NCBI GenBank assembly: GCA_050084515.1
Contig: CM114271.1
Span: 16,306,001-16,370,000, forward strand
Length of the DNA stretch: 64,000 bases
Direction of reading: 5' to 3'
DNA from: Blasia pusilla
Lineage: Eukaryota
In this document: piece after piece, positions 25,900 through 60,000 of the stretch
Position numbering within the stretch: the stretch's first letter is position 1
Layout of the letters: every line of letters begins with the position of its first letter
Program-made: the position numbers and the translations under genes
Notes under the pieces: model-generated
Database searches by the model: none
What the model was told of the DNA's origin: nothing
Seen by the model: the letters and a program-made list of their open reading frames with translations, nothing else

Positions 25900-27034
25900 T
25901 TTTAATCATAATTTTGCCTTTGTCTAGTTGTTATTCTCTCCATGTAAATTTGTGCTCGATGGATTCTACTCCTCTTATTATGGCTCCTAATACTTTCACT
26001 TTATTACAAATTATTATGTTCCCACTTATTTTCTGGTTTTATTGCCTTTATGGTTGGATAATCCATCTCCTCGCTCATTTCTTTTTATATACCTAACTTG
26101 AACTGTAATCTCTTTCCTCCTCAATATAGATCTTACCATTTTCCTACAAATATTGGCGCATCCATGACACTTTTTATATTTCTACCCTATACTTTTTTTA
26201 TCCCCTCTATATCTCTTCCCATGCCACCCATCACAATCTTGATCAATTACTACCGAATCCTATTATTTTGCCATTCCCACATATCTTGTTTGAACCTCCT
26301 TGCTTAAGTCTCCCATCTTTTTCAATCGTTATCCCTTCTCTTCCTCCCTCCCTAACTTACTCATCCCCATATCATTTTCCATCATTACCTCCCATCTCTT
26401 CTCCTTGTAGAACTCCTTCTTCTATATATGTGACTAAAGGTTTGTTGGATACCTTGTGGTAAAGAGTTTGCTTCTAAACAGATAAAAGAAACACATGAAC
26501 CTTATTGTAGATCCATACAAGGGCCTTCATTCCCTAACTTGATATCCCCTCCCATGATTGGCACATTTAGTGGGAAGAGTCGTTGCTAAGGTCTCTAGTC
26601 AAGGTAAAAATACTGATTTTGAATTTTTTTCCAATCTCCGTGCATAAAGTGCTAAATACATGAGGTGGTTTCCCAATGACCCATTGAATTCTACCCTTGG
26701 GCAGAACTAAAACTCACTAGGGAAAGAATAATAGGAGAGTCTGAGCATTCTTATTCTTAGGATTGTGTGCTAACCTTTCTAATGGGAGCAACAATGCTCA
26801 TTGAATGATGAGATGACGAGTAGTAGGAATAATTGTGTAGAGTCTGGGACAAGGGAGATCAAGATGGAAAGAGCGATCATGCCAATCATGGGAGGCCTTT
26901 AATAAAAAAATACTTTCGCCATAGCCTACTTTTGAGGCAAGTTTGTGAGTTTTCAAGAGTGGCTCAAGAAATTGGGACCTTTCTTTTAGGAAGTTCCAAA
27001 TTTGGACATAGTGGCATTGGAAGATCTTGAACCT
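25900..27034 (+). mobile_element. Second, older copy of the CRE-like non-LTR element, with an internal inversion; truncated by element X
   Basis: INYYRILLFCHSHIS at about 26245 versus IHYYRILLLCHPHIS in copy 1; HANHGRP...SLLL.QV.EFSR at 26878-26960. Segment 26551-26877 matches 822-1143 in the opposite orientation to its flanks. Confidence 0.75.
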
Positions 27035-27248
27035 TGTCGTGCGCATACATATCGTTACACAACATACATCGCTGGTCACATCTACACAATAAAACACCGA
27101 TCTTCTCCACACACGGGTAGATCCACACATGTACAGAAATCAACTCATACATATACCTGGAGATCACACAATCGCCCCCCTAGCTGGCAGTTGGATCCCC
27201 CTAACTCCAGATAGAAAATATCACATCTCTTTCACATGACCTACTACC

Positions 27249-30703: not shown

Positions 30704-32124
<1,421 letters not shown>

Positions 32125-32990: not shown

Positions 32991-33299
32991 ACTGCCATAC
33001 AACGAGGGTATCCATTGGGATCAACGTCTCCACTTCAGGGGCCCGATCGCCACCTGACTCTCGCTACTCTGGGATAAAGGCATGACTCCACCCCTGCCTC
33101 ACGAGGTGGTTGGCACTCCTCTGTAGCTCTTGAGTCGTATCCCACAATGGTAAAGAGGTCTCGCCAACATGGGAAGAGGCACCCGCTATGGCCTGTCTCT
33201 CCGTGGGACTATCCGCTACTCGGACATCCTGTGCATGTGCATTCCCCTCCAACAGCTCTCATGACCAGCTTACGCTACTTGTGAAAGCTGCCAACGTGG

Positions 33300-33813
33300 T
33301 GTCATGTCTTTTAGGATAGATCGGTGGGATCTAATAGAGCGCCTTCATGAGTAGTGGAGGACACGCCCAGTAGGTCGAGGGTGACCTGCTGAGGCCCTTG
33401 GAAACCTGAGATAGCAGGTTTCCCCTTCGTTTCGGCTCATTTGGAGCCATATTGAGGAACTTACTATTTTAGGTAAGTACCATTTTGAGTATATGATCGA
33501 CTTACTATTTTTGGTAAGTGGCCCTTGACCTCCTACATCAAGTCAAGAGCCAAGGAGGTGACTTGAGAGAATAGGTTACCATGGAGAGAGCTTGGGAGAG
33601 GAGAGGGGTATACCTCAAGGAGAGAGAGCTTGAGAGCTCATTCTTTCTTTGTTGAACCTCTTGGCATGAGGCGGCGGAGCTATGGTACCTTGCCTTGTGA
33701 GTGTAACCCAAGCCTCTCATTAGGAGAGTGGGTTTGGTTTGACATGAGAGAGAGTGCACACCTTTGAGAGCTATGGTGTGAGATGGTGGAGAGAGAGATT
33801 GGATCTTACTTTA
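33300..33813 (+). repeat. V terminal repeat A1 (514 bp)
   Basis: Direct repeat of 42963-43476; about 9 substitutions and no indels by eye. Confidence 0.95.
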
Positions 33814-33828
33814 CAAAGAGAGAATGAG
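33813..33828 (+). promoter_or_regulatory. Putative self-priming primer-binding site of V
   Basis: ACAAAGAGAGAATGAG is complementary (15/16 plus one G:U) to CTCATTCTTTCTTTGT at 33637-33652, about 28 nt after TATA at 33609. There is no TGG tRNA-type PBS. Confidence 0.7.
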
Positions 33829-35559
33829 AGAATGAGAGAGTGAGAGAGCTTCATGGGGGAGCTCGCTGGTCACTCGCTGTTTTTGCAGGTTGGGGACCGT
33901 GTTCCCCGTTCAGCGGCTCATGGGAGTGCTCACCGGAGCAAGGGCTGCTTTCATTACTCTTTGCATTTGCCGATTTTTCGTGTGGAAGAGTGGCGCGCGG
34001 AAGCGCTGCCCAATTTCTGATAGGGATTGAGTATGGGGGCGGGTTGCCCCATGCTGGTGCTCTCGGGAGCACCATGTAGCTTGCTGATATGTATTTTTAC
34101 AGATGTTACATTTTCGTTGGGAGAAATCAGCGCGGGAGCGCTGCCGAATTTTGTGTAGGAGAAAGAGACATTGGGCTTTACGACAGTCCCCGTCAGTTTT
34201 TACTGAAATTTTCAATTCTAAATATTTTTTGATGATAGCGTAGATCATGAAGCTGTGCACGCTGTGCAACAAATAGTGCACAATTTGGAGTTGCGAGCAA
34301 AAAGTTATGGGCAATCTTATAAAGCTGCCATTGCTAGGCGATTTTTAGGGTTAAATCGTGCAAACCCTAAATCAGCCGCCACACCGGCGGTGGTCGTTGC
34401 CATCATAGTCACCGTCACCGTCGACGGTCAACCGTCACCGTCATCGGTCGGCCGTCACCATCAGCGGTCAACCGTCACTGTCAAGGGTCCACCGTCCATT
34501 GTCCACCCTTTAGGTGCCATTGCCGCGATTACGGAGTGGAGGGTCTTCCATGACGTTCGTTGATTCCTTGACTTGCGTCGCCACCACGTACTTTGTTTTG
34601 GCCGCCACCGTCATCGCAGTTTCTTCACCAACCAGTGAAGGCAGATGACCTCCGGTTATGGTGTTTGAGTTTTGATTTCATCTTTGCTATGTTGTGATTG
34701 GTAGCCGCCGGCGGCGATCGAGTATCGCGGTCGAACGCCCGTAGCCGCTAACGCGCCGCCGATTACCGCGCCCGTGCCGCTCGGGCGCACCGCACCATCT
34801 AGATCGCGGAGCCGCACCGTCATTGTGGAGCAGAGTGTGGGATTATTATTGATTGAGGAGGGTATGCCGAGTGCCATCCCACCATCGAGTGCCGCGGCGG
34901 TTCGTAGCCGTTGCGTCGCCGCAAACGCCGCGACCGTTCAATGGGACCGCATTGTCTATCGAGGAGTTTTGAGCAAGCATCGATGCGGGAGGAGTATGAC
35001 TTGCTGATTGGAGGAGTTGTCTCCACGATCGAGTTGGGGTCGAGATTTGCGATTCTTTGAGGAGCGACATCGACATGTGTTCAGGGTTACCCATTCTGGT
35101 CCTTTACCCTGCACATGTGAGGAATTCTGGTAGTTTATTTGGGGATATTGGGTGTGTGGATGCTGAGAGCATCATTTATGTATGTGGTTTAGGGGACATA
35201 GACCTGTGTGGGATGTCCAGAGTTGAGGGTAGGTTGTCGATGAGATGATAGCCTGGTCGATTTGCCGCACCATGCCGCGTGTTGCCGCACGTTACACGTC
35301 TCGGGGAGAGAGAGTGTAGATCGAGTGCCGCATGTTTGGGATGAGTGATTGAGGGATTCCTCACGAGGTTCAGAGTGATCGGGTGAGAGGGGCACGAGGG
35401 TCATCACGGAGTCTGTTCGGGACTTTGAGAGGCGAGGTGGTGAACCCGAGAGTAGCTCTAGAGGTTTTACGCGGAGTGGCGCGAGGTTTCGAGGGTCTCC
35501 ACGTGAGGGACCACCTCGACCTCCTTCTGTGTCATCGTGAGACGAGGGAGAGGGTGTAG

Positions 35560-36900
35560 AGGAGTTTGTGAGCACATCGCCACACATTGTGAGTGTTCCT
35601 ACCAGTTGGGCGTACGAGATGAACGACCGGGGTAGAGGACCGCGTAGGTTTTTAGGTGCAGTAGGCACGATTGAGTTGCACGATTTTATAGCAGAGTTTA
35701 GGAGTTGGTGCGACTCCTAGCGGGCCAGGAACTCTAGAGAGTTCAACCCGTTTACAGCATGGAAATGTATGTTCTAGCATTTAGAGTGGGCGCCCATGGA
35801 CGATTACCATGAGTTCTCTCACAGATATGCATGTGAGATCGAGGCGTGGAGGCTCTACTATGACCCACATTATGTGTTATGGACGGAGCCATTCCCAGAT
35901 GAGGAGGAGGAGTCAGGAGAGGCTATTGCCTCTTCCACTAGTGACGTTTTAGGAGGGGTCACTCGCACGGGAGCAGTTGCACCGTCTAGTCGGGTTCGTC
36001 CCAGGTTCAACCCTGTAGTTGAGTTCTTTGCTGATTTGAGGGCGAGCTACCAGGGGGTACGGACGGAGAAGTTGCGGAGCATCCACGACTTCCAGAGGCG
36101 CTCGGGTGAGAGTTTGCGTGAGGCTTACACTCGCTTGCGCCGGTTGATCAACGTCACTCAAGGGGTGACAGAGGCTCAGGCTATCCAGTCATGGTATGCG
36201 ATACTGGACCGGACCCTGCGGACACGGGTGCGGGAGGGGGTGCTTCTTATGAACACCTCCCCTACGTTGAGAGATGTTTTTAGGACCGCCGAGAACATTG
36301 AGCGCAACATGGCGGAGGAGAGCGTAGCCACCATGGGTTCTGGCGAGAGCGATCCACGATTGTCGCACCACTGCGGCAAAGAACGTGGACCGAGATGGGT
36401 CGGCAGTGGCACCACGAGCTCGGGGGGGAGGATACCGGGAGGCCGTGCCCACGAGACTGCGCCTTCATATGCGGCTCAACAGCGATCGCCTACTATTACT
36501 TGTTGGTCATGTGGTGGAGCCCATCATCGCCGCGATTGCACTCGTCGGTCACGGGCGTGTGCCTCAAAGATGGAGGAGGAGATGGTCTTTGCACCAGGAG
36601 GTTATCGGTGTGACTATTGTCGAGGTATGGTCATACACGCCCAGGTGTTTTAGTTTACATCTGAGTTACGTCTGGACCGAGGCCCAGAGGGCACCAGAGC
36701 GAGTAGCCGGTTCGGGTGGGCCTAAAGATCGTGCTCGGTGGTCCCGTTGGGGGGAGGAGCTGGAGTTTCCGGACAGGGTGGTGGAGTTGCCCGTGGAGGA
36801 GGTAGAGTACCACCACCTAGACGCCGCCGAGGGAGATGCCGGACGTGAGGCCGGGATGGGCGCTCGATACAAGCGACTACGAGGTCGATTGCCGCTATGG
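35560..36900 (+). pseudogene. Element V gag with zinc knuckles
   Basis: ORF 35796-36653: QRRSGESLREAYTRLRRL (gag major-homology-like), CWSCGGAHHRRDC, CDYCRG. Confidence 0.8.
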
Positions 36901-38310
36901 CATTGAGGTTACCGATGCCGGATCCGTGGCATCGACATCATATGGAGCAGCCAGAGATCCTGGAGGATCCTGGATGGATGTCGGGGTTGCCGGATGGAGG
37001 CGCCGCCGCGGTTGTGCGCGTGGAGCGCCGCAGAGTTGGATCCCAGCGGGGAAGCCGAGAGACAGACTAGGCTTCCTCAATCTTTCACGTTGTCCGAAGC
37101 GATGAGGACCCCATCGATGGGTCCTCATCAAAGTTCCTGGAGAGTTGGTAATGTTGTTGGTGTGCAAGCACGGAGGGCGATGGCAGAAGCGAGTGCAAAG
37201 ACTCCTATTGTTGATGCTCAGGAGGGGCATGTGTCGAGCACGTTGTTGGGGGCGGCCACCGTTGTGTACCGCACTCCTTTATTTCCTGCTTCCGATGTTG
37301 TGACGTTGGGAGGTACGCCCGCCGAGGCTTTTCGGCTGGCCGCTTCACTATGTGAGCGCGGAGTTGGAGTTCATGCATCACGTTCAGAGGTGATTGTAGA
37401 GGAGGTGATGGACCTGCCCTTGGAGCGGATGCTCGGGCCGTCCACGTCAGATTCATGGCAGTGCGATCGCTAGGATGGCGGAGATGCCCGCTAGACCCGC
37501 GATAGAGCATGCCATGGCTTCTCCTGGTGTTGTGTTCTTTGGATAATCGAGGAGAGGTCTTCCGGTTGGTGAGTCCTCGAGGTAGAGCTTTTAGTCTTGG
37601 CAGCCGGCGTCTTGTTGATTCGGGCGCAACCCTTGATGTTGGGGAAAGCGTCATTCAGAGGATTGGGCTTGCGAGCCGATGTGGAGTGTTGTCCATTTCG
37701 GATATAGACATCCTTGGGTGGAGCGAGTACCACCACGATATATCACCGACAGAGGTCGTGGTGAGGATTCGCCGGGACATCCTGAGATGAGTCCGTGGTG
37801 CGCGCCAAGGCGATAGTGATCGATGTTGAGTCCTCGACGTCTTGGTTGGTGGAGCGATGTTATACCCGATGGGGTTTTCCTGGATTCTTGGGAGGAGTCG
37901 GCGTCCCTGAGACCAGGATGGCGTCGGTGATGGGCGCCTTAGCTCATTATTCGTTCGATTCACAGTGCGATGATCGAACGGCCAGAGAGATGGCGACCTT
38001 AGCAAAGCATTTAGCAAAGTGCCATCACTTGGCCTAGTGATTTGATTGAGGACATGTCCATGCAGAGGATACTCCCGTTCTCGACATTTCTATGGAGAGG
38101 AGTGTTATGGTAGTGCATCATTCCGTGGAGGAGAGGTGCATTTGTGGGGCTCGGACCGAGGAGCTTCAACAATTGGCAGATCTTGACGTCGCGGCACAGC
38201 GTGGAGCGAGGCATTTGCACGAGCGTGCGCGGGTCCGAGGAACCCGAGGTAGCGGGAGTGCTATGATGACACCCTTGGATACTACACCCATTGTGTGGTG
38301 TACCGGAGGA

Positions 38311-39270
38311 GGGTATTCGAGTGTTAGATCTCTTTGGAGGGATTAGCACGGGTTAGCTCTGCTTTTGCAGTGCAGGAGTGCGAGTCTGGCAAAGACTTGT
38401 ATGTGGAGAGTGATGATGTTACGAGGCGCGTCTCACTACGATATGTGGCGCAATTACGCCCTCGTTTTCCCGACTTATTGTCTGCGTCCGTAGTACAGGG
38501 TACGAGTTCCCTCACAGAGGATATTTTGTTGTTGGGGCGCAGGACTTAGAGCGGTAGGGACCATTGATTTGGTCATTGCCGGTTGGCCATGTCGGGCCAA
38601 TCGAGTGTTGGACGAGGCAATGGTTCGCCGACACTCGGTCAGGTTGTTTTGGGAGATGTTGAGGGTCTTACGGCAGTTGCAGGAGCACCAATCTCGTTCT
38701 CCAGCCTACATTCTGGAGAATATGCCGATCTTAGGAGACTCCAGGTCACGGGTCGTGACGAGTGCTCATCAGGTGCGTGCCTGGATTGGCCCAGCAGTGT
38801 TCTTGGATGGGGCGAGTGTAGGTTCTAGAGCCCATCGCCCGCGTCTATGGTGGACCAACTTGGTGCCCCAGCGGTGTTATGGAGGGCGTATGCGAGAGTA
38901 GAGCGCCCCTCCCCTTTGTTAGTGGATTCCATTCTGGATCCAGGTCGTCGATCACAGGCAATGAGGCACGATGATCGACCACCGCTGACTGTGGTCAACA
39001 GGGTAGGCAGGCCACGGGCAGCCTTGCCCACGTTTGTGAGTTTTCCCGCTTCCTATGCATACAAGGAGGCCGGTCCTGGCTTGGTTTGGGATGACCAGGT
39101 TCAGCGGTTGGTGGAGCCCAACGCCGACAAGAGAGAGCGAGCGATGGGATTTCCCACAGGAGTGACGGCAGTACCATCAGTGTCAGAGGCATCACGACGC
39201 CATGTCTTTGGTCAGGCGATGGACCTGAACTACTTGACATGGATCCTCAGCTTGGGAGTGGCTGAGCAGC
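38311..39270 (+). pseudogene. Element V DNMT3-like C5 cytosine methyltransferase domain
   Basis: GIRVLDLFGGIS (38311), LVIAGWPC (about 38570-38592), LFWEMLRV, AYILENM (VI), RAHRPRLWWTN (VIII), RERAMGFPTGVT (IX), RRHVFGQAMDL (X). Several frameshifts. Confidence 0.9.
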
Positions 39271-39596
39271 GTCGTATGAGATCGCGACAGATCACAGCGG
39301 TTGCGTTGGTGAGCCCCATGCCTACCGAGACGGTGGAGGTAGTGGCTGGGGGCGAGACCCGAGGAGATCTACGCACCAGGGGAGATCGGGAGAGACACCC
39401 TTGGACTTCTTGGGATGTTTTGAAGGTATGCAAGGAGATGATAGCCACAACATCGAGCGCGGTTTCGGGCACTGCACGTGGAGGAGATCACAGTTTGCAG
39501 TTGGCTGCAGGAGAGCGGCCGAGTGTTTTTGTTCGAGACGGGGTTGCACCATAGCAACCACCGATACCCGCGCCGGAGAGTCCTACTGTAGTCACG

Positions 39597-41030
39597 ATGG
39601 AGACTTGGGAGCCAGATATGGGCCCTAAGTTGACAGGAGGAGAGCGGCGCCGAATACATCAGTTCCTCAGGAGTTATAGGAGCTGCTTTGCGTTTAGCAT
39701 GGAGGATTTGGGTACGCTGAAGGGACCGGGGATCCGCATTGAGTTGTCGAGTGATATGCCGATCTTTCGACGACCCTACAGGTATAGTGATATGGAGAGG
39801 GCTCTGATTAAGAGTAGGAGCCAAGACTTGGTCGGAGCAAGACTAGTGGAGATGTCGCATGGGGAGTATGCATCTGCCACTGTCATGCCCGCCAAGAAGG
39901 ATGTGCATGGCAACTAGACGGATAGGCGGATGTGTGGGGATTACCGACCTATCAATCGGCAGACGAAGTCCGATAGGTATGCCATGCCCACCCCTGAGGA
40001 GATCTTTGATGCGATTGGTCACGCAAAGGTCTTGATTCATTGATTTATGAGTGGATACCATCACCGCCTGCTATCGATTGGAGGACAGGCAGAAGACGGC
40101 ATTTTGGGGCATCGATCCTCACGGGAAGGATTGTTTGTACCAGTGGCGGTTCTTACCATTTGGGTTAAAGAACGCCCCGGCTGAGTTTCAGAGGGTCATG
40201 AATAGGATCTTGGCTGGTCTGGATTTTGCTAGGTGTTATATTGATGACATCGTAGTCTTTAGCGCCACGGTTGAGGAGCATGAGCAACATCTAGAGGAGG
40301 TGTTTCGACGATTGCAACTACATGGGCTGAAGCTACATCCACCAAGTGCAAGTTCTTCTACGACCAGATTGAGTACTTGGGTCATACGATATACCCAGGG
40401 GGCCTTGGTGTTCAGCAGACGAAGGTAGAGGCTATCTCACGCATTCCACGCCCTACAGATGTGAGCCGTGTTCGCGCATTCATGGGATTGGCGAACTTCT
40501 ATCGGCGATACGTCAAGGGATTCAGTTTGATTGGTCTTGGCCGACCTTGCTCACCAAGGTGGATCACGAGTGGCATTGGGGGGATGAGCAGGAGCGAGCA
40601 TTTCAGTTGCTCAAGGACAGGTTGACGTCCGCACCCATCTTGAGGAGACCGATCAGGGGGCGTCCTTTCCAGTTGCACACAGATTGGAGCATGTTGGGGC
40701 TTGGAGCGGTGCTCACCCAACATGATGATGAGGGTAGAGAGTTCGTGGTGGCTTACGCTAGCCGCTCGAACAACGCTGCAGAGGCGAAGTACAGCTCGTA
40801 TGAGGGTGAGTGCTTGGTCATGGTGTGGGTCGCCACATTTTAGGTGTTACTTATTCGGCAACCCCTTTACTATCATCACTGATCATCAACCACTGAAGTG
40901 GTTGATGGAGTCCGATAAGCTTACAGGGAAGCTTGCGAGATGGGCTCTGTTGTTGCAGGAGTATGATTTTCAGGTGGTACATAGACCTGGAATGCTCAAC
41001 CAGGATGCAGATGGGTTGAGTTGTAACCCA
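39597..41030 (+). pseudogene. Element V reverse transcriptase/RNase H
   Basis: YASATVMPAKKD, LPFGLKNAPAEFQRVM, CYIDDIVVFS, FMGLANFYRRYV, LHTDWSMLGLGAVL, YSSYEGECL, TDHQPL. Confidence 0.95.
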
Positions 41031-41219
41031 TGCCCGAGTCAGCGAGATGCAACTGGAGCTCGATGGCATGAAGAGAGTGATGAGGAGTCGGTGCCAAGAT
41101 GGCACGCGTCAGCCTATTTAGGCATGTTGGCTATGGAGAGCCAGAGTGTGGAGACTTCGATGGCGAGGTCTAGTGGAGAGTCTTTGGATCCCGAGGCCAG
41201 TGAGGACACGACAAGTGGC

Positions 41220-42659
41220 CGAGATATTCATGATGATGGAGTAGTCTTAGAGTACCTTCGTACTGGCAGCCTTGCGAGCACCATGGATGCTAGAGAGCGG
41301 GATCGGATCCTACAGCGGGCCTGACGGTTCCGTTCGGAGGGGACACATGTTTTGAGGGTTTGGGAGGATGGCAGAGTACGCGTAGTGCCGCATCCTTTGC
41401 AGAGAGCACGACTAGTGCAGCATGCCCACGAGGAGTTGGGTCACTTTGGGGTGAAGCGGACGTATAGCTTGCTCCAGATTCGAGATTGGTGGCGAGGCAT
41501 GCAGATCGCGTTCAGCAGCTTTGTTGCCAGGTGCATGGTGTGTGATCGGGTCGAGCATCGTTCTATGCTCCGACTCCACGATTGCATCCATTACCGATCA
41601 TGGGCTTAGGTATAGATGGAGTTTGGATTTTGCAGACCTTTGCCCTTGACGGAGCGTCACACGATCGTTATGTGTTGGTGATGGTGAGCACTTCTCGAAG
41701 TGGATCGAGTTGGTTGCATTGCCCGACAAAGCAAGTGAGGGAGTAGCTTATGCCTTCCTTGACAGTCTTTGTCGAGTCATTATGGCGCACCAACCGAGGT
41801 GTTGATGCACGGTACCGAGTTTCGCGGTGAGTTCAGGCCTTGTGTGATCAGGGCGATCGACCACCGACGATTTTCGCGAGATCATCCCGAGGCGGATGGA
41901 TTAGCGGAGAGAGTTGTGCAGACGGTGAAGAGGGGTTTACGCAAGTATGGCTTGCAGAGAGGTCACCTAGGAGATTGGGACCTCCAGTTGCCATGGTTGG
42001 CGATGGGATACAGATTCAACAGGCATGCATCCTTAGCGTCTTTTTCACCGTACTTGCTACTTTATGGCCGAGAGCCAGATTTTCCTGCGGCCATTCGTCG
42101 AGATGCTGGTGAGGTGCTGAACCTTGATGACCCAAATGTATGGGTGCGAGCATGTTCTCAGAGGGCTGAGTTATTTCGGAGAGTGATGCCCATGGCGTTC
42201 GAGAACTTGGCGATTGCACAGCATCGGGATACGTTGAGGTATGCGACTATTCGAGGTGGTGGTTATCGACCAACTATCCGGAGGTTTCATCAGGGAGATT
42301 ATGTCTATTTGCAGCAGACGGCACCAACGACGTTGGATGTGACTGCAGGGCGCACTATCCTGAGAGTGCATGACATTTTGCCATCGGGTGTTCTCTTGCT
42401 GGAGGGACGCGATGGTATGGTATGGCATGACCATGTGCGTAATTGTGCGCCATGTCACCTTCCTAACATTGATGGTACAGTAGATCCGAGCTTAGTAGTA
42501 GTTCCTGCAGGCTTGCGTTGTATGTTGTGTGGTTCTGCCCGTGGTGCGGCCACGATGCTAGTCTGTGATGGGTGTTCGAGAGGATGGCATATGGCATGTT
42601 TGATGCCACCTCTCACTAGGGTTCCTCAGGGACGATGGATGTGTCCCAGATGTACATAG
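41220..42659 (+). pseudogene. Element V integrase with C-terminal PHD finger
   Basis: HAHEELGHFG...CMVC (HHCC), ADGLAERVVQTVK, GDYVYL, CMLCGSARGAATMLVCDGCSRGWHMACLMPPLTRVPQGRWMCPRC (C4HC3). Confidence 0.92.
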
Positions 42660-42826
42660 AGAAGGTAGTTCTACATTCCGACTTGTGTCTATGACATGGA
42701 TGACAAGGAGGCGACTAACGATGGGGCCACATAAGCACCCGGCCTTCTTGCTCTTAGCGTCCGAGAGATGTATGTCATGGTAGGTAGGGATAGATGGCTA
42801 TCTGGAGTTAGAGGGACCTAACCACC

Positions 42827-42839
42827 AGCTAGGGGGGCG
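42827..42839 (+). promoter_or_regulatory. Polypurine tract of V
   Basis: AGCTAGGGGGGCG directly precedes repeat B1. The same motif precedes B in X (27173-27185) and W (58505-58517). Confidence 0.8.
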
Positions 42840-43604
42840 ATTGGAGATATTTTGGTTCTTCGTTATTTGGATGCCATGAGTTAGCATGGGATCATGCGTG
42901 TTTGTGTGTGTGTTCGGTGACAGCGATGTATGTTGTGTAGCGATGTGTATGCGCACGATAGCTGTCACGTCTTTTAGGATAGATCGGTGGGATCTAATAG
43001 AGCGCCTTCATGAGTAGTGGAGGACACGCCCAATAGGTTGAGGGTGACCTGCTGAGGCCCTTGGAAACCTGAGATAGCAGGTTTCCCCTTCGTTTCGGCT
43101 CATTTGGAGCCATATTGAGGAACCTACTATTTTAGGTAAGTACCATTTTGAGCATATGATCGAATTACTATTTTTGGTAAGTGGCCCTTGACCTCCTACA
43201 TCAGGTCAAGAGCCAAGGAGGTGACTTGAGAGAATAGGTTACCATGGAGAGAGCTTGGGAGAGGAGAGGGGTATACCTCAAGGAGAGAGAGCTTGAGAGC
43301 TCATTCTTTCTTTGTTGAACCTCTTGGCATGAGGCGGCGGAGCTATGGTACCTTGCCTTGTGAGTGTAACCCAAGCCTTTCATTAGGAGAGTGGGTTTGG
43401 TTTGACATGAGAGAGAGTGCACACCTTTGAGAGCTATGGTGTGAGATGGTGGAGAGAGAGATTGAATCTTACTTTAATTGGAGATATTTTGGTTCTTCTT
43501 GTCTCGTTGTTTGGATGCCATGAGTTAGCATGGGATCATGCGTATTTGTGTGTGTGTTTGGTGACAGCGATGTATGTTGTGTAGCAATGTGTATGCGCAC
43601 GACA
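42840..43604 (+). repeat. V 3' terminal block B1-GC-A2-B2
   Basis: B1 42840-42960 and B2 43477-43604 are direct repeats differing by a 7-bp indel and a few substitutions. A2 equals A1. Junction GCACGATA-GC-TGTCAC. Confidence 0.95.
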
Positions 43605-44380
43605 GTGGTCACAGACTCGTCTCGTGATTGACCTCCTCGTCTTGCAAAGTGCACGAGTAATTGACTCATCGGGCCGTCACTTGACCGCCACCCTGACCGA
43701 TAAGCAATGGTCTCCTCCCAAAAGTCAAGGATGAATCCTAGGGGATATAACACTGTACTCCCCACCAACACATCGTACAACTCAATTGGTGTCATAATCG
43801 CACGTGTGCTCACGTGTGCGCACCATAGCACTATCCGTCGCATGCTCTGGCTGGACTTTGAAAACTATCTCCTGTCGAGTCATATATTGCGTTGGTGACA
43901 CGCCCCCAATCAAGGTCTGTATCTGGAAGGGACAAGTCTCAATGTTGGCCTTCCGTGACCCCAACGCTAAACACGATGCCTTCCCTAACATCAAGGGCTG
44001 CGCTCCCGAATCAAGTAGAAACGCGTACGGGTGGTATACTATCCCTGTCGGACTAACCAAGAAAAATACTCCAACTCGATTATTCAATAACAATACTCCA
44101 TGTGTCACCAGGGCTCGCTCTATGGCCGGTCGAGCTGACATATCTACAAACTTCTCCGCCGCCGCATGCCATGACTCTATGGGGGACGTTCCGAGCACCG
44201 GATGTGAGGGCAAGTCCACCACCTCCTCAACTACCTCTGAACAAGAAGCAGTCACCTCTCCACGTTCACACAATGTGGCGACCAGCCGGAACACCTCAAT
44301 TGGTCCAACTCTCAATGATGCCGACTCTATGGCGGAAAATAGCGGAGTCTAGCTCACTCTGGTGACCAACTCCAACACTA

Positions 44381-44440: not shown

Positions 44441-47007
44441 GTGATGTCGACATACCTGTCTGACCTGTAGGCACCGTTGGTCATTGAGGCACCATCGATG
44501 GTGTGTGTAGTGCCTCCGACAATGTGAATGACTGTGGAACCCTAGCGTGCCGCCCAACGGTCTCCTCCGTTGGGTCAATCTCAACTCCACCTCTAGATGG
44601 CTCAATGCATCTTGCAACACCACGAGTCACTACTGCAGCCGCCTCAACCTGAGCTGCACTACACATAAACCCCATACTAGCGAGATCCTCACCCGGGTCA
44701 GGGTAAGAGGTAGAAGTTGGAGCTACACTAGCTACTCGCGGCTCCATGCCTTCCCTGAGCAGCATCATCGTCACGGCAGCAATCCTCTGCTCTCCAACTG
44801 ATCGATGCGTGAGAGAAATGCTGGCTTTGGTGCTCTTGCTCCATCTCTTGTGGCTGGTGGTGGTCCTCTACCACCACGTCCAAGAAGAACTCCCTGACCT
44901 TCTCCAGGACGACCGCCCCGAGGCCCTTGGCATACCTCTGGACGTGCCTCTGGACGAAGGTCGAAACATCTATCCCTAGTCTGACCATATCTCTGGCAAT
45001 AGTCACACTAGTACTGTGGTGGGGCCATCCTCTGTGGTTCCTGACCAAATCTGAGGCGCTCGTGGTCCTCTCCCATGTTGTGTGGAGTCTCTCTGCATAT
45101 GGGCCTCTCCATACGTTCAACATGACAACATCGGTCCTTGCTGGGTAGCATATGTAGGTACGGGTCGTTGCCTCTTAGGCTCACAATACCCGCCTTGCTC
45201 TCTGGGCACACTTGCCCGCTTCCGTGGTACTGGTGCTCGTTGTGGCACTTGTGGGGTCACCGTCGCTCGTGGACCCGTCGACTCCCGAGAAAATCCACCG
45301 GTCATTACATGCTCCTCACTCATGTTGAGCTCAATACTCTCAGACAACTCAAAGATCACCTTCAATGTGGGCTTCGTTGTGTGAATCAGCACCGCATCTT
45401 GGACTCTCCTCTGTAGTTCTCGGTCCAGAATCCCATACCAATAAAAGATTGACTGCGTCTCAGTTATTCCACACGTAGCAATGATCAGCCTCCTCACGCA
45501 TCTGAATGTCTCTCTCAGATTCTCACCCGGCCGTCGCTGGAAATCTTGTAGACTCTTCAGCTTGTCGGTGAGTACGCCCTAGTAGCTCTTCCCCAACTAT
45601 CGGAAGAACTCCACTGTGGGACTGAAGCTGGGTGGCCCTCTACCACCAGAGGTCTTTGCCACATCGTCTGTCTCACTGCCCTCTTCTCCATCTAGTCTCT
45701 AGGCTGATGGTGTGGGTCTCTCTCCTCTCACGATCCCATCATATGCCTCACGACCACTAGTGGACACATACCCTGGAGCCCAATACATCCTCCACGCATC
45801 GATCTCTACTGAATATAGTGATTGAAACTCCATGAAATCATCCATCGGAGGACCCTCCAATTGTTGGAACAACCCCTTCCACACCATGAAAGGGTTTAAC
45901 CGTGTCGGGGTTCTTATCTCTTGGAAGTCGCACCACGTATTGAACTCTTGGATATCTAAGTCGATGGTGCCCATTGCACCCGAGAACCGACGCATGCCCC
46001 GATGGCCCATGTTGTCCATCTCTTGCCAAGTGATACCGCCTTCGTCTGCGATCTTGTCACCAGACCCAGTGTCTAGTGATGACGATCCAGCCATGGATGG
46101 ATGTCGAGGTAGCTCCTCACTCGTAACCCCTCGGTATCTCACTCCACTCCGTGGCACATCACTACTACTGCTCGCACTACCCCATTCTTCCAAAGCTTGG
46201 AAGAACGCCGTGATGACAACTCCGTCTCATCCGCTCAAGCACTCAGACTCACCGAGAGTCTCCCATACTCCTCACTAGCTCACATATGCTAACGTCAATC
46301 CCGTGATGACACACCCAACCTCACGCACACTCAACACTCAGGCTCACCATGAGCCTCCCACTAACTCATCTAACCTACCGACATGCTCGGGTCATACATG
46401 CGACCCCTACTCAGAAACCGCCATATATCCACCAATATGCTACATATAAAAAGAGTCTACACTCATCACCATCATTGCACCCATCTAGCACCAGCTACTA
46501 CTCGATATCCATGTCACATCTGAGTAGCCGATAGGCCGAGATCTATCGTGGATAGGGCGTAGGAGCCAGCGGACTATCTTGAGTGTAACTTTGTCCCACG
46601 GTGTTGGATGAGGTCGAGGATAGGTCCATTGTGTCAGGAACGTTGTTTCTGACAACTTTCATGTTGAGGTCTTTTACAGTCGGGTGACTTGTTGACTAGG
46701 TCACCCGCCCCTGATAACCTGTGTGCGCAGATTACCAAGTGAAGGGCTATTTTTAGGGGAAGAACCTTTTGGCTCTTCTCCTAAAAATAGCCAAACATCT
46801 TCTTCAACATGAGAAAGATGGCTTTCCTAAGCCATCTTTCTCATGTTGGGCCGTTGGAGCACATCCCTTGTATGTGTGTGAGCTAGGACTAGGGTGCTAG
46901 CGTCCGGATTCCTTGATAGCACAGGGTGGACGAGGTTCGATATGCCGATGTAGATTGAGGAGTGGAGTTTTACGCCGGGTGTGCCGTTTTTACTACTCTT
47001 TATTTCT

Positions 47008-47021
47008 ACATGAGAAAGATG
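47008..47021 (+). promoter_or_regulatory. Putative self-priming primer-binding site of Y
   Basis: ACATGAGAAAGATG is the exact complement of CATCTTTCTCATGT at 46833-46846 inside repeat A. In W's copy of A this motif starts about 31 nt after TATATAA. Confidence 0.75.
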
Positions 47022-47150: not shown

Positions 47151-48331
47151 TGTCGTATAGTAAAATCAACCAGTGTGTAAACTCCTTCGTCATTAAGTGT
47201 TAGATAGAGTTTCATTAGTATTAAGTAAATTGGCTTAGAAAAAAGAGATTCTTATGTTTAAACCTCTTTATGGTACCTCTTTTATGCAGGCCCAACTTTA
47301 GGAAAAGGAGGTAATAAATAAAAGATGACTTTATCAAAGTAAAGTAGTTGCTTTAATGAAAAGCAAAAGTAGTCTTGGTTGGTGGCTAGGTTAGTTGGGG
47401 TAATTTGGAAAATATCAAGTGGGTAAAAGAGGATATTTTGGAAGAGATAAGAGGAAATCTACTTGTGTCAAAATGTGATTGGCTAAGCCTTGAGAGGAAA
47501 CCATGTGGCACAAGATAAGATAAGTTCTATTTTGTACTCTTGTGAATCCCTTGTGAGTATATAAAGAGGAGGGACCTTCAAGGGTTCATCACCTTCTATT
47601 CCACATCTTGAGTCTCTCGTGTCTCTCTTGAGTGTATGGCTTTGGGATTGCTTGCTCTTCAAATGAGAGTGGATCACCCCTCTTGGGAGAGTAACTTGAC
47701 CATGGTCTATTCTTCGAGAGATTTCTAGAGTGTGGTGTGTGTGTGTGGGGATGAGAGGTTTGTCACCGTAGAGGAGTTTAGTCATACTAAAATAGCGGAT
47801 GTGTCAAGCATGGATAGGGGTGGAGCACGAGCTGTGCCCGACTTTCCTTTCCTCAATCCTTACCATGTCAAGGTACTTTTTGTAGATAGGCACTGGTTCA
47901 CTCGCTATTTAGTTTATCATTTTGGGGAGGCGTTCATGAACCAGGTCATGCAATCTCCAACTCCGGTGATTCTTCCTATTGTCACATATGGAAGGACATG
48001 GGATTGTACTTTGTATGTCCTTATATAGCGATCCATGGATGTCAATAGGCCTGCTCAAGTAGGGTTTAACACTAGTTGTGCTATCTTCCTCGTGTACAAG
48101 CGTAAAATAGTTTATAGGGATTTTATAGTTAGGAATTTTGGGGTCCGATGTTACGAAGAAGTGATCGCCTCGGCACTTCCATTTGTGATACCTGTCGTGA
48201 GAGAATGGAGAGTGTACATCATAATTTTGTATTGAAAAAGGAGAACTTATTAGAGAGTTCACCTTGCATCGACCGCATCTATCGCAGCTAGAAGGCCCGC
48301 CCTTGCTCGAAGAAAGACTCTCGACACGACA
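47151..48331 (+). mobile_element. Solo unit U2 (TGTCGT...ACGACA, TSD GCGC)
   Basis: GCGC at 47147-47150 and 48332-48335; TATATAAA at about 47558; homologous to U1. Confidence 0.9.
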
Positions 48332-53931: not shown

Positions 53932-54717
53932 TCATATTCTTTGCTGAAAAGGGAGAGAGATACATGGGAAATCCGGAAGCGGGGAAAGAAGCCTCGGCTC
54001 TGGGAAGACCCAACCAGCTAGTTCTTACGGAAGACCATCTGATATCTCTCGCGATTCCCCTCAGACAATGGATGAAAGAAGATAACAACATATTTGCTGC
54101 ATTGGTGCTAGAAAAGATAGAACAATTAATTAGCCTTGTCAATAAACCAGTCGCCGAACGGTGCTCCGCCCATGAACGTCAGTTGTACTTGGTGATGACC
54201 CGATACTTATGTTTATGGGAGGAAAACATGGCAGGAAGATTAAGAGCACCTGGCACACTTCTGTAGGACTAGGAAGTAGAAACCTTTAATTGCCCCTCCA
54301 TGGACCCCTACCTTTTTGCGACCGTGGGGGCAGAAGCAAGTTCCCGGCTCCCAGAAGGGGCTCATGGAAGGATCTCGGCCCTCTTCGCGAGATCAGCGAG
54401 CCGATCGACGGAGTAAGCAACAAGAAGATCACCTTGCTTGGAGACCTCATGGGCTGTCTCCCGGTTTTCGTCTTCGCACGAAGCCCAAGAGCAAGAAGAG
54501 AGACAGGAATAAACTCTCCACTACGTCCCCTACCAGTTCGCAGTCGGACGAAGAGTCAAACTAGGACCCCTTTGGAGAGTCAGGGACGGGGCCGACCCAA
54601 TCAACTAGAGCGGAGCCGCTACCTCCTCCCTCCCGAGCCTCAAGACCGGGACCCACCAGCAGACCATTCCCCATGGCCAATACTAGGAAGACGCTTGCTA
54701 AGGTACCCTGACTTTCT

Positions 54718-57700
54718 TTGGGACGGCGAGATGATGTGGACAACTTTGTGCTGGAATTTACCCATGTAGACAAGGCAAATGGGGAAGGTTCAGAGGAGGA
54801 CTTGTTGCGAGTCTTTCCTAGCCTGCTCAAGAAGCGAGCAAGCCAGTGGTACGAGGGTCTCGGAGCGGACGTCACGGAAACATGGAAAAGGGTATTGGAG
54901 TCCTTCCTACATGAGTTCTGCGACCTTGAGTTCGAGGACAGGCTTCTTACGAAGCTTCGCAACCTGAAACAGAAAAAGAACGAAACTCTCCAGGAGTACA
55001 CACAAAGGTTTCGCATCCAGGTGAATAAACAGGAACACACCACTACCTCGCAACTGGTAGATTGGTTCATGTCAGGACTGTCCAAGGAAATAGACCGGTA
55101 CTGCTGGCGAGGCCAACGAGATTCCCTAGAAGCAGTCATAGCCTCCGCAGAGGCTTACGAAGCCTCAGAGAAGTCCCGTAAAATACGAAGACGGTGTCAC
55201 CAATGCCGAGGTTCGTCGCAAACTAGTGCTTTGTCAGAGGACGAAGCGTCCTCCACAGACACGGAATCCTCTATGGGGGATACTTCGGAGTCCTCGGACT
55301 CGGAAAAAGATGTAAAATCTAAACGTAAAGGAAAAAGCACGCGCCACCACTCTCCCAAGCACCGAAGAAAAACCCGACCCACAAAGCACCTTCCCCAGCG
55401 GTCCGAAAGTCCAGTAAGGGGGACAGCAAGGAAGGCCGGCAAGTCGGCCATGGAAGAGTTAAGTAAGCAAATGGCATAATTGAAGGTACATCTGGCGGCC
55501 CAGAAGGACCCCAGAAGACGGCTAGGTCTGATGAGGCCCAACATCTGGTGTAGTACCTGCGGATCCCAAGGGCATACTGCCCAGGAATGCCACATGCAGA
55601 GGGATGTATGTTGGATGCAAGAAGATACCACTACAGAAGAAGGGTGGTATGAACCCAAACAGGGGGAAGGGTGCTATGCCATCCAAGCTGTGCCACCACC
55701 AAATCCCGGACGAAGTTGGATCACCCGATATGTGCCTCCGGAATACGGGGAACAGAGACCCCTGAGATAGATTATGGGCGCGGTAGCCTTCACGCCACCC
55801 ATAAAAAGGAATTGTTGTTATAATTGCGGTGCGGCTGACCATTGGGCTAATAATTGCCCAAACCCAAAGCGGCCAGTAGGACTCAATCCCTTGTGCGGAA
55901 ATTGCAAGAAAGGCGGGCACACTGCAGTGGAATGCCCGGAGCCCAAGGTTCCGTGGTTGTTGGTAAAATATGTCAACACCCCAGCAGCCCAACCAGAGTC
56001 CAAGAATGACGTAAATGTGCAACTTGTCCGAGTGGAAGAGTTAGGGTCCCCCGGGCCAAAGCGAGTCACTATCAGGGAGGAAGACTCAAACAGAGCGGAC
56101 GCCGAAGAATCATTGGACTAGCCCAAAGAGTTCCAAGAAACCGTTCTGGTTGTCACCACGAGGTCCAAGAGTCAGACCGCGGGGAACCCCAAGGCAAGGA
56201 AAGGTGCTTCATCTTCGCGTGAAGCTCAGGACCCCAAGGCGAAAGGTGTCGATGCCTTCCACACCGGGAAGGTCATCCTAAAAGGCGATGTGGACCCGAC
56301 CTTCGATCGAAGTCACCCTAAGTACTTCCATCAAGATATCGAGGAGCAGGTTCGGGCTCAAGTGCGTCAGGACCAAGGACCAGAAGGGAGGAAGACCCCA
56401 GCGCCGACGAGAACCGGAATGACTCCGGCAGTGCAAGCCATCGCGACGTCACCGCTGGTCTTAGAAGCCTACGACCTACTCAGGGACTTGGCGTCAACCC
56501 CGGCCAATATAACCCTATTGCAATTATTAATGGATAACCCAGTGTACAGCAAAATTTTGCAGCAGTGGAAGATAAGCCGTAAAAAACCCAAGAAGTGCGC
56601 AAAGCATCTACCAGTAGTGGATCTGTTCCGTATTGAAGTGGAAGACTTGGGAGCACCAGAGGTAGAGGTGGAGATTGAGGGGCACACCATTAAGAAGGTG
56701 CCCATTGACTCAGGAAGCGGAATTAACATTATGACAGAACAGACAGCTCGGGCACTAGGATATACGGAGTGCGAGCCCACCGAGAAGTATCTGCGGTTTG
56801 CGGATCAGTCCCGGAAGCGACCCCTCGGACAGCTCACTCAGATCCGGACCATGCTTGGGCGGGTGCTATTTCTGTTGGACTACTTAGTCTTGCAGCCCCT
56901 GACAACCACGGGCTATCCCTTGCTCATTGGACGACCGTGGCTGTATGGTGCGCGAGTGACGACGGATTGGAGGAGGCAACGTTTCACGTTCCAGGCTCCG
57001 GACCAGGTCTCTAAGCGGCTCATCAAGTTGTTGTGGAAATCACGACCATCCCAAGGAGAAAAGCCACCGACCGACGAGGGCTGTACATCAGATCAAGAGC
57101 AAACTACAGCTACTGAGTCCTCGTCGAATGTGTATTATTTAGAATGCTACGAAATAGACGAAGAGTCGATACCTACCAAACCGATGTCAACCCGAGAAGA
57201 AGAGAAGCTAGGTCATAGCACATTCCAGTTTATAGAGAGTATGGTTCAAGAAAAGGACTACATACAGGTCTTAGTTGCAGATCAGAAGTCTCTACGCCTC
57301 TCGGCGGATTTGTCTCCCACCGAACTCCTCCTGTATAAAAGATTATTGTTTGAGTATTTGGATGTGTTTGCATACTCCATGGATGAAATGACAGGCATTC
57401 CTGCACGGTATGGTGAACACAGAATTGACCTAAAAGAAGGTGCGGTACCGGTACGAATGAGGTAGTATCGCCTCAACCCGAAATACTCGTTACTAGTCAA
57501 GGACGAGATTGACCAGCGTCTCGGAGTAGGAATAATTAATCTGGTGTTAAGTAGCGAGTGGGTGTCTCCCATTGTGATTGTACCCAAAAAACAAACGGGA
57601 AAAATTAGAGTGTGCCAAGATTACCGGAAATTGAATGCGGCCACCTTAAAGGACCATCACCCCCTACTTTCACTGACAGTATTTTGGATAAAGTTGCCGG

Positions 57701-57760: not shown

Positions 57761-58580
57761 TGTCGTGCATACATATCGCTACACAACATACATCGCTCGT
57801 TACATCTACACCACACAACACCGATCTTCCCCACACACGGGTTGATCCACACATGTACAAAAATCAACTCATACATATACATGTAGATCACACAACAAAA
57901 ATAAAGAGTAGTAAAAACGGCACACCCGGCCTAAAACTCCACTCCTCAATCTACATCGGCATATCGAGCCTCGTCCACCCTGTGCTATCAAGGAATCCGG
58001 ACGCTAGCACCCTAGTCCTAGCTCACACACATACAAGGGAGGTGCTCCAACGGCCCAACATGAGAAAGATGGCTTAGGAAAGCCATCTTCCTCTCTTATA
58101 TAGGTTGGGAAGAGCCAAAAGGCTCTTCCCCTAAAAATAGCCCTTCCCTTGGTAACCTGCGCACAGAGGTTACCAGGGGCGCGTGACCTGGTCAACAAGT
58201 CACCCGATTGTAAAAGACCTCAACATGAAACGAAGTTCCTGACACAATGGACCTATCCTCAACCTCATCCGACATTGTGGGACAAAGTTACACTCAAGAT
58301 AGTCCACTGGCTCCTACGCCCTATCCACGATAGATCTCGGCCTATCGGCTACTCAGATGTGACAGCTGTCGTGCGCATACATATCGCTACACAACATACA
58401 TCGCTCGTCACATCTACACCACACAACTCCGATCTTCCCCACACACGGGTCGATCCACACATGTAAAAAAATCAACTCATACATATACATGGAGATCACA
58501 CAACCGCCCCCCTAGCTGGCAGTTGGATCCCCCTAACTCCAGATAGAAAATATCACATCTCTCTGACATGACCTACTACC

Positions 58581-60000
58581 CTATACACATCTCGGACACA
58601 TCCATCGTCTCGTGGGAACCAGATCAAGAGGGGGGGTCAGACATGACATATGCCACCCTCGAGAACAACCATCACATACCAACATGGTGGCTGCACCCCT
58701 TGCAGATCTGCACAACATACACCTCAAGCCTGCAGGTACCACTGCCAAGCTCGGATCCACCGTCCCATCTACGTTCGGAAGATGACATGGCGCACAATTG
58801 CGCACATGATCCTTCCAAACCATACCATCCCGTCCCTCCAACATGAGGACTCCAGTCGGTAATACCTCGCGCACACGTAGGATCGTGCGCCTTGCACTGA
58901 CATCTAGCGTCGTGGGTGCCGCCTGCTGTAAATACACGTAATCTCTAGGATGAAACCTCCTAATCCTTGGACGATAACCTCCTCCACGAATGGTCGCGTA
59001 CCTCAATGTATCTCTATGTTGGGCAATAGCTAAGTTCTCAAAGGCCATAGGCATAACTCTACGAAAAACTTCTGCCCTCTGAGAATATGCTTGCACCCAC
59101 ACATCTCGATCATCAAGATCTAACACCTCCGCCATGTCACGTCGAATCACTACAGGTAAATCTGGCTCTCTCCCAAAGAGCAAAAAGTACGGTGAAAATG
59201 ACGCCAAGGATGCCTGCCGACTAAAGCGATAACCCATAGCCAACCATGGCAACTGTAGGTCCCACTCCCTCAACTGTCCCCGCTGCAAGCCATACTTGCG
59301 CAATCCTCTCTTCACCATCTGTACAACTCTCTCCGCCAACCCATCCGCCTCAAGATGATCCCTAGACGTGGTGCGGTGATCTATCAGCGGCTGATCACAC
59401 AAGGCTTGAAACTCTCCCCTGAACTCGGTACCCTGGTCAGTCAACACCTCCGCCGGTGCACCACAGTGACTAAGCACACGATCTAGAAACGCATAAGCTG
59501 TTCCCTCGCTCACCTTGTCTGGTAGTGCCACCAACTCTATCCACTTGGAGAAATGCTCCACCATGACCAACACGTACCTATGATGACGCCCTGTCAATGG
59601 CAAAGGTCCCGCAAAGTCTAAACTCCACCGATAACCTAAACCCATAATCGGCAAAGGATGTAGCTGCAGAGTGGGAGCATTGAAGGATGCTCGCACTCTG
59701 TCACATACCATACATCCGCCACAAATGGCTGTACCCAAAGATGCATGCATGCGCCACCAATACTGAACCTGGAGTAAGCTGTAAGTACGCTTTACTCCAA
59801 AATGTCCCTACTCCTCATGGGCATGTCGCACTACACGTGCTCGTTGGGAATGATGAGGTACCACTCGTATCCTACCATCTCCCCATACCCGCAAAATGTG
59901 AGTTGCCTCCCACCTGAACCTCTTGGCTCTCTGTAGGATCCGATCCCGCTCCCTAGCACTCACTGTACTCGCAATGACGCCAGTGCGCAAGAACTCCACA
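58581..60000 (-). pseudogene. Element W integrase with PHD finger
   Basis: 389-aa ORF: CMVC, WSLDFAGPLP, LTDQGTEF, DGLAERVVQ (D,D,E intact), CMLC...CDGC...WHMSC...WMCPRC. Confidence 0.93.

Follow-up and report, generated by a model that had tools for sequence, protein, structure and literature searches.

The 64,000 nucleotides analysed here (Blasia pusilla, NCBI GenBank assembly GCA_050084515.1, contig CM114271.1, positions 16,306,001 to 16,370,000 of the forward strand; in the following "the window", whose first letter is position 1) contain, by self-comparison, the nested retrotransposons V, Y, W and X. They are members of two families of Ty3/gypsy-type long terminal repeat (LTR) retrotransposons with a PHD finger at the C-terminal end of the integrase. 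Inside a terminal repeat of these elements, called A, lies a motif that is complementary to the sequence directly following A, and we consider it probable (about 0.78) that elements of this type prime minus-strand DNA synthesis with the beginning of their own transcript.

33300–43604, plus strand: V, a complete element
from 46512, plus strand: Y, the 5' part of an element
64000 down to 57761, minus strand: W, the 3' part of an element of Y's family
46493–43605 plus 33300–27035, minus strand: X, a third copy of the Y/W family, split by V

The order of the Pol domains (reverse transcriptase, RNase H, DDE integrase of the rve type) is that of Ty3/gypsy elements both in V (40051–42656) and in W (61007–58584, minus strand), and the open reading frames (ORFs) of the two contain RVT_1, RT_RNaseH_2/RT_RNaseH, Integrase_H2C2, rve and a C-terminal PHD domain. 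The termini TGTCATG...CACGACA and the 4-bp target duplications are likewise of the Ty3/gypsy kind (TG...CA, short duplication). No ORF matched a chromodomain in the domain scan; the ORFs end in a PHD finger (PF00628).

41763–42656, plus strand: C-terminal integrase ORF of V with terminal PHD finger (PF00628 PHD, E = 3.3e-11)
58584–59807, minus strand: integrase ORF of W with zinc-binding domain, rve core and C-terminal PHD finger (from the domain scan and homologues)

Among 8000 candidates scored, 464 are homologues of the integrase-PHD ORF of W at E ≤ 0.001, and their precomputed domains are rve, H2C2 and PHD. The nearest named ones come from liverworts (Calypogeia fissa with 80%, Marchantia, Riccia), the next from Sphagnum, Klebsormidium and Haematococcus.

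The terminal repeats, however, are not those expected of a Ty3/gypsy element, namely two equal repeats with a primer binding site (PBS) at the 5' one and a polypurine tract (PPT) at the 3' one. The 5' end consists of A alone and the 3' end of B-GC-A-B', so that full copies, flanked by 4-bp target duplications, read A-P-internal-PPT-B-GC-A-B. Here P denotes the partner sequence beginning at the base after A, and p the internal motif inside A to which it is complementary. In V, W and X the PPT (AGCTAGGGGGGCG) is followed at once by module B (121–138 nt, ending ...CGACA). In V and W there then come GC, A (TGTCAC/TG...) and, from A's last base on, B', which ends ...CACGACA at the flank. The order A-internal-B-A-B had raised the question of a tyrosine-recombinase (DIRS/Ngaro) identity, which is ruled out by the rve integrase and the 4-bp duplications; the domain scans, which covered 22 + 14 ORFs (36 in total), brought up no recombinase domain.

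33296–33299: left target-site duplication of V, GTGG
33300–33812, plus strand: repeat A1 of V, beginning TGTCATG and composed of a promoter part U, then p, then a'; 98% identical to A2
42827–42839, plus strand: PPT of V, AGCTAGGGGGGCG
42840–42960, plus strand: module B of V, from the base after the PPT, ending ...CGATA
42956–42969, plus strand: B/A junction of V, CGATA-GC-TGTCACG, right- and left-end integration termini back to back
42963–43475, plus strand: repeat A2 of V, with a copy of p at 43300–43315
43476–43604, plus strand: module B' of V, proper start 43477, ending ...CACGACA
43605–43608: right target-site duplication of V, GTGG
46512–47007, plus strand: repeat A1 of Y, 90% identical to W's A2
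57761–57896, minus strand: module B' of W, 3' terminus ...GCACGACA
57897–58364, minus strand: repeat A2 of W, with TATATAA at 58101–58095 and p at 58071–58058
58367–58504, minus strand: module B of W, preceded by the PPT (58517–58505) and followed by GC (58366–58365)
27035–27185, minus strand: PPT (27185–27173) and module B (27172–27035) of X, ending ...GCGCACGACA, then unrelated sequence (short form)

Complementarity between p and P

A preliminary description of this DNA had proposed self-priming of the kind known from Tf1 because no TGG-starting PBS follows A and because, in two families, different post-A sequences are complementary to a motif inside A. These observations were all reproduced. 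In Y, positions 47008–47021 (ACATGAGAAAGATG) are the exact reverse complement of 46833–46846 (CATCTTTCTCATGT), with 14 of 14 pairs. In V, 33813–33828 pairs with 33637–33652 through 15 Watson-Crick pairs and one G:U pair out of 16, and in neither V nor Y does a PBS starting with TGG follow A. The TATATAA of W (58095–58101, minus strand) starts 31 nt ahead of p (58071–58058), and the TATAC of V starts 28 nt ahead of it.

33609–33613, plus strand: TATA-like box of V (TATAC), 28 nt before p
33637–33652, plus strand: motif p of V, predicted 5'-terminal 16 nt of the transcript and predicted self-primer
33813–33828, plus strand: P of V, predicted self-primer binding site, from the first base after A1
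46806–46847, plus strand: local hairpin of Y, whose 5' arm repeats P and whose 3' arm is p (local fold −33.4 kcal/mol)
46833–46846, plus strand: motif p of Y
47008–47021, plus strand: P of Y, predicted self-primer binding site

In both V and Y the first base of P is the first base past A, and p starts 175–176 nt before A's end. When random 30-mers from the same source were compared with A, the observed score was matched in 0 of 300 trials for V and in 1 of 300 for Y. In the minimum free energy (MFE) fold of V, 14 of the 16 p:P pairs form, with a mean pair probability of 0.94.

The comparison was extended to 80 related loci from metagenome contigs, fetched with an alignment of 15 integrases. 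Copies of the 5' type, that is, those in which A is followed by something other than B, number ten in these loci and, with V and Y, 12 were tested. In one family (F1; L001 and L014) the 12 nt after A (ACTCAAAGAACT) are complementary to a motif 170 nt before A's end, and in another (F2; L069) the 14 nt after A (ATTCTAGAAAAACT) to a motif 144 nt before it. Four further loci (L004, L034, L038 and L077) have p/P pairs of their own, of 16, 14, 12 and 16 nt, respectively. The covariation thus extends to six further lineages, in which p lies 144–250 nt upstream of its post-A complement, and the case for self-priming from covariation became much stronger: each of eight lineages (V, Y/W, F1, F2, L004, L034, L038, L077) has a different pair of 12–16 nt at the equivalent, anchored place. 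Across the first 12 positions of the eight lineages, 95 of 96 cells are Watson-Crick pairs and one is G:U, with 11 of the 12 positions varying on both sides. When P of one lineage was set against p of another, only 5.5 of 12 pairs were formed on average and 9 at most. For intact copies, random 30-mers reached the observed score in 0–2 of 300 trials. When the predicted RNA from p to P was folded, the helix was present in the MFE structure of five out of five sequences (10–16 of its 12–16 pairs, mean probability 0.71–0.97).

That p is the 5' end of the RNA is suggested by its distance from a TATA box, which is 31 nt in W, 28 in V, 31 in F1, 32 in F2 and 26 in L004, and thus 26–32 nt in five lineages. 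It should be noted that in Y, W, L001 (~8680–8714) and L077 (~4250–4296) the stretch leading from the TATA box to the predicted start contains, close in front of p, a near-identical copy of P. With this copy as the 5' arm and p as the 3' arm, a local hairpin can form in W (58100–58058, minus strand) as in Y. The P-like arm is absent in F2 and weak in V. Such a hairpin would sequester p in the 3' copies of the RNA.

The transcripts themselves were looked at in three RNA-seq runs with the same species label, aligned to 42400–43900 (734 to 1024 reads per run at at least 92% identity). In each bin above a few reads, more than 80% and typically about 95% of the depth comes from pairs with the first mate on the minus strand; if the libraries are of the usual stranded type, the reads are sense transcripts. 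The depth runs on from A into B' (18–33), drops to 3–6 at the end of B' and is 0 in the flank, and in one run (X12) 40 reads continue past A's end (43476) with letters that read as P plus leader. Base 43476, an A that could be the first base of P, is skipped in 8 of 55, 7 of 31 and 8 of 37 reads of the three runs, and because it is missing in part of the reads, the copies differ at exactly the A/B' joint. A further 3, 4 and 9 reads lead directly from 42782 to 43270 and thus lack the PPT, B and most of U; the join ends in GG..GG, which is not intron-like, and may stem from an expressed deleted copy.

Several results speak against self-priming or weaken the support for it. The pairs of L004, L034, L038 and L077 came from an exact 11-mer search, which by itself selects in part for perfect pairing, and in these loci A's end has no independent definition. 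A TATA box is absent within 60 nt upstream of p in Y, L034, L038 and L077; in Y a palindrome with CTAAAAATAG stands at the expected position. Six of the 12 copies of the 5' type (L018, L019, L027, L050, L055 and L063) keep only 7–9 contiguous pairs, which random sequences equalled in 6 to 107 of 300 trials. These six are older copies; that of L063 has kept 12 of 14 pairs and differs by two G-to-A changes. Finally, no pile-up of molecule starts or ends is listed in the three RNA-seq runs over 42400–43900, and the depth just after p, at 1.31, 0.86 and 1.26 times that just before, shows no clear step. The dips in depth match those of the DNA-type run X10, so that the RNA profile, confounded by divergence between copies, speaks neither for nor against a transcription start at p.

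Layout of the terminal repeats

The flanks of V (...CCAACGTGG on the left, GTGGTCACAG on the right) carry GTGG on either side, and Y has the paralogous site in uninterrupted form (CCAACGTGGTCATAG); therefore V is a single insertion with a 4-bp duplication. The unusual 3' end is not confined to the window. Sequence extends at least 700 nt downstream from the integrase in 54 loci; 21 of these (14 non-redundant) have, base for base, the order PPT, B...CACGACA, a dinucleotide (GC, AC or GT), TGTCATG...A, B'...CACGACA, flank, with B measuring 107–179 nt and A 75–465 nt. The CA and TG integration ends thus stand back to back in a palindrome inside the B/A junction. The 5' copies of A are preceded by unique flank in all eight non-redundant cases that could be judged, and never by B.

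In the preliminary description the right edge of A was taken as the end of U5. This was borne out in that A is joined, in the 3' copies, straight to the first base after the PPT; A alone, however, is not the whole terminal repeat. Since B' begins where plus-strand synthesis would start (after the PPT) and A ends where minus-strand synthesis would start (before P), the repeat formed by reverse transcription would be B-GC-A. B and B' have no diagnostic column across 16 elements (6 + 10 pairs), and the pairs of L042 and L080 group within their own element, from which it follows that B' is renewed from B in each cycle. Separate inheritance of the two modules, which the lower B/B' identity in V had brought up, is ruled out by the same comparison.

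At the A/B' joint some variation is found. In family F2 the joint has 0, 1, 2 or 7 extra bases resembling the start of P, and in L068, L069 and L072 the first five bases of B' are missing. A deletion derivative (L060, 2300–2724; L065, 4518–4942) has only 75 nt of A between B and B', A's first bases being kept and joined to B'. The target duplications of L001 and L069 match at three of four positions. In four contigs (L004, L034, L038 and L077) integrase, PPT and B-GC-A run straight into P and the leader. Such an order would be that of a head-to-tail tandem or a circle, but in short-read assemblies it may reflect a repeat cycle and not a real arrangement.

Three observations do not fit easily with this layout as the regular one. 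Firstly, 21 loci (18 non-redundant), and X in the window, stop right after B, with unique flank following PPT-B...CACGACA; two such short copies are complete (L014 with the duplication TGTT, L063 with TCAT). They could be B × B' deletions or the result of repeat collapse in short-read contigs, and they do not discriminate between models. Short copies would be unable, with nothing but their own RNA, to restore A's promoter part, so that the long form must be the replicating one. Secondly, the form A-B-GC-A-P, which a symmetric circle model predicts, was seen at none of the eight non-redundant 5' ends; it may collapse quickly through recombination between the close copies of A. Thirdly, B and B' of V differ by five substitutions and one indel in ~122 nt, whereas A1 and A2 differ by nine in 514.

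Proposed replication scheme and alternatives

Taken together, pairing and layout suggest the following cycle. The transcript would start at p, ~30 nt past the TATA box inside A, and its first 12–16 nt would fold back on P, directly after A. A cut behind p, which in self-priming of the Tf1 type depends on RNase H, would free a 3' end; extended as in fission-yeast Tf1, this end would copy the 130–235 nt that separate p from P. By the standard retroviral scheme the linear complementary DNA (cDNA) should read [B-GC-A]-P-internal-PPT-[B-GC-A]. The A/B' joint at the 3' end of integrated copies would then correspond to the right end of the linear cDNA joined to the left end, that is, to a junction of the 2-LTR-circle type. 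Opening of this joined molecule at the left repeat's CA-GC-TG palindrome would yield the integrated copy. If the palindrome were nicked after each CA, two recessed CA-3' ends with 2-nt overhangs would result, as in the usual processed substrate. The ends could be joined by ligation into a circle or by an end-to-end template jump.

This second half of the scheme is less certain. That joined ends are the regular route of integration we would rate slightly below an even chance. A broader proposal, put forward somewhat more tentatively still, is that in a green-lineage clade with PHD-finger integrases the ends recognized by the integrase have moved from the edges of the LTRs to the internal CA-GC-TG palindrome, with joined-end cDNA (2-LTR circle or template jump) as the regular substrate. 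Copies ending after B would then be non-replicative by-products, arising either in the same cleavage or through later deletion.

One locus looks like a fossil of the priming reaction, although it is known from a single contig. In L022, on a contig of 125 kb, the 3' region consists of PPT-B-AC-A followed by an inverted copy of A that leads from p back to A's first base. The two arms (1274–1463 and 1618–1807) are 190 nt long, 93% complementary and separated by a spacer of 154 nt. The last base of p (1462) pairs with the first base past A (1619), and the inner ends of the arms coincide with both. The inverted copy ends ...GGTCATGACA, that is, with ...CATGACA at the flank, after which unrelated sequence follows. 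An artefact of k-mer assembly is unlikely because the sequence shared at the joint is only ~12 nt. The structure suggests that the primer was copied into DNA: an RNA begun upstream of p would have primed from the 3' end of p, plus-strand synthesis would have included a copy of the primer itself, and TGTCATG, inverted, would then have provided the CA end for integration.

Among the alternatives, the one that fares best, even if we regard it as unlikely, is that the pairing of p with P is a conserved long-range stem of the 5' leader RNA, serving in packaging or dimerisation, in the control of translation or in the stability of the transcript, while something else primes minus-strand synthesis. 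A stem would be in line with an RNA-seq depth that does not step up at p, and in Y/W, F1 and L077 p can pair instead with the nearby upstream arm, as in a structural switch. A stem does not explain, however, why P starts exactly where A ends in the 5' copies and why the same edge is joined to the post-PPT base in the 3' copies, which is what is expected of a primer site; nor why the inverted copy of L022 starts at that very base and pairs from the last base of p. Moreover, no other primer site is conserved: four P sequences differ, and none starts with TGG.

A second alternative, less probable again, concerns the layout: B-A-B could be a secondary product of unequal recombination, of nested insertion of a solo repeat or of faulty assembly, and not a product of the replication cycle. 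The metagenome contigs were indeed assembled from short reads, a procedure that can collapse repeats or join them wrongly; four contigs go from A2 straight into P and are possible graph cycles, and loci without A2-B' are about as many as loci with it. Against this, the base-exact boundaries recur in the 21 loci (14 non-redundant) with unique flanks and integrases that are only ~50% identical, and two window copies of different families, one of them the single insertion V with its 4-bp duplication and empty-site paralogue, share the layout. Neither recombination nor nesting would be expected repeatedly to begin B' at the post-PPT base and to end A at the base before P.

Very improbable is priming by a transfer RNA (tRNA) or tRNA fragment at or near the post-A sequence, with the internal complement being incidental. 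Half-tRNA primers do occur in some plant copia lineages, according to passages of Neumann (2019, PMC6317226). But the identity of P between lineages averages 46% over 12 nt, whereas tRNA-binding sites are conserved within clades; P begins with AC or AT in seven lineages and with TG in L038, never with TGG; and the complement inside A covaries with P. ARAGORN found no tRNA gene, and thus no sequence for comparison with P, in the window or in any of 36 loci. Chance, or a functionless palindrome-forming process at the DNA level, deserves next to no credence, since, although local palindromes exist in A, random 30-mers so rarely reach the score of intact copies and the anchored position is the same in eight lineages with different sequences.

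Known systems and other features of the window

Self-priming as such is not new: it is established for Tf1, as cited in Neumann et al. (2019, PMC6317226), and in passages of the same paper it is predicted for the plant lineages Tcn1 (Ty3/gypsy) and TAR (Ty1/copia), which make up 12% of the elements surveyed. The elements described here resemble Tf1/Tf2 of Schizosaccharomyces pombe and the Tf1/sushi group in that no TGG-starting site of the tRNA type is seen after the repeat and in that the post-repeat sequence is complementary to the predicted start of the RNA. The helix of Tf1 measures 11 nt as compared with the 12–16 nt found here. The self-primer of Tf1 has been reported not to be removed, with which L022 is in line. 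The label "Tf1-like" in the preliminary description applies to the proposed mechanism only. As to the type of element, Tf1/sushi elements have a chromodomain where a PHD finger ends the integrase here, and A is only part of a terminal repeat that is asymmetric, split and permuted.

Tcn1 and TAR are, like the present elements, plant LTR retrotransposons with predicted self-priming; they have no tRNA-type site, and here none starting with TGG is seen. Tcn1 occurs in mosses and club-mosses (passages of PMC6317226). Tcn1 has chromodomains, 95% of them with the aromatic cage motif according to these passages, rather than a PHD finger; in the main-text passages of that paper "PHD" is not found and the split-repeat layout is not mentioned. 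Gypsy-7a_cRei from Chlamydomonas (Craig et al., 2022, PMC9940879) is a green-lineage Gypsy element which, in the passages concerned, has a PHD finger in the polyprotein and a repeat asymmetry in the same direction. Its missing piece is 8 bp as compared with 107–179 bp here, and the passages give no explanation for it; the legend places PHD before INT, whereas here PHD stands at the C-terminus of the integrase.

Elements of the DIRS order with a tyrosine recombinase, Ngaro and PAT, have "split direct repeats" in the order A1-internal-B1-A2-B2. This is formally the layout of the present elements, which differ in having a DDE integrase (rve), 4-bp duplications and TG...CA termini. Dictyostelium DGLT-A, considered as an element with modular LTRs, did not prove to be a parallel: the "B-module" passage concerns TRE5-A, a non-LTR element. 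No paper was found linking self-priming to liverwort elements or to PHD-finger integrases, and none describing a split-repeat layout for an integrase-bearing element; judged by their titles, papers on "split direct repeats" deal with recombinase elements or are general reviews.

Retroviral integrases can cleave the palindromic junction of 2-LTR circles, as Delelis et al. (2005, PMC1180852; 2007, PMC1905944) indicate. As in the CA-GC-TG of the present elements, abutted CA and TG ends lie there in a palindrome that is a substrate for integrase. The retroviral junction arises only after circularisation and belongs to a side pathway, whereas here it is built into the inherited sequence of the element.

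Experimentally, self-priming is known only from Tf1-type elements, to which covariation in eight lineages and what looks like a natural fossil of priming now add support of another kind. The permuted repeat is of greater weight, since an integrated copy holds a joint of the U5/U3 type and, internally, a palindrome of integrase ends. If the proposed route is correct, a molecule of the circle-junction type would be a regular integration substrate and not a dead end, and the old idea that joined-end DNA is a substrate for integration would be revived for a natural family of retrotransposons. LTR-finding programs built around two equal repeats, with a tRNA site and a PPT next to them, will place the boundaries of such elements wrongly, or miss the elements, in the genomes of bryophytes and algae.

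The rest of the window holds a few further features. ORFs for gag (Retrotrans_gag, Ty3_capsid) and an aspartic protease (54712–57462, plus strand), from a different LTR retrotransposon, lie in the gap that separates Y, at its truncated end, from the end of W. A repeat of 1.2–1.4 kb, Z, is present in the leader of Y (47151–48331, plus strand) and in the pol region of X (30704–32124, minus strand). It has the termini TGTCGTA...TACGACA and the 4-bp duplications GCGC and ACGG, with empty sites in Y and W. Internal repeats, a p/P pair and a PPT were found in neither copy, and Z probably represents a solo terminal repeat from a related family. An ORF at 5153–5797 (minus strand), probably an exon from a nucleobase transporter gene of the host, has its match (E = 2.2e-28) in the C-terminal part of the Xan_ur_permease family. 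The G+C content is ~30% at 20001–26000 as compared with 42–58% across most of the remaining window (37% in 2001–4000).

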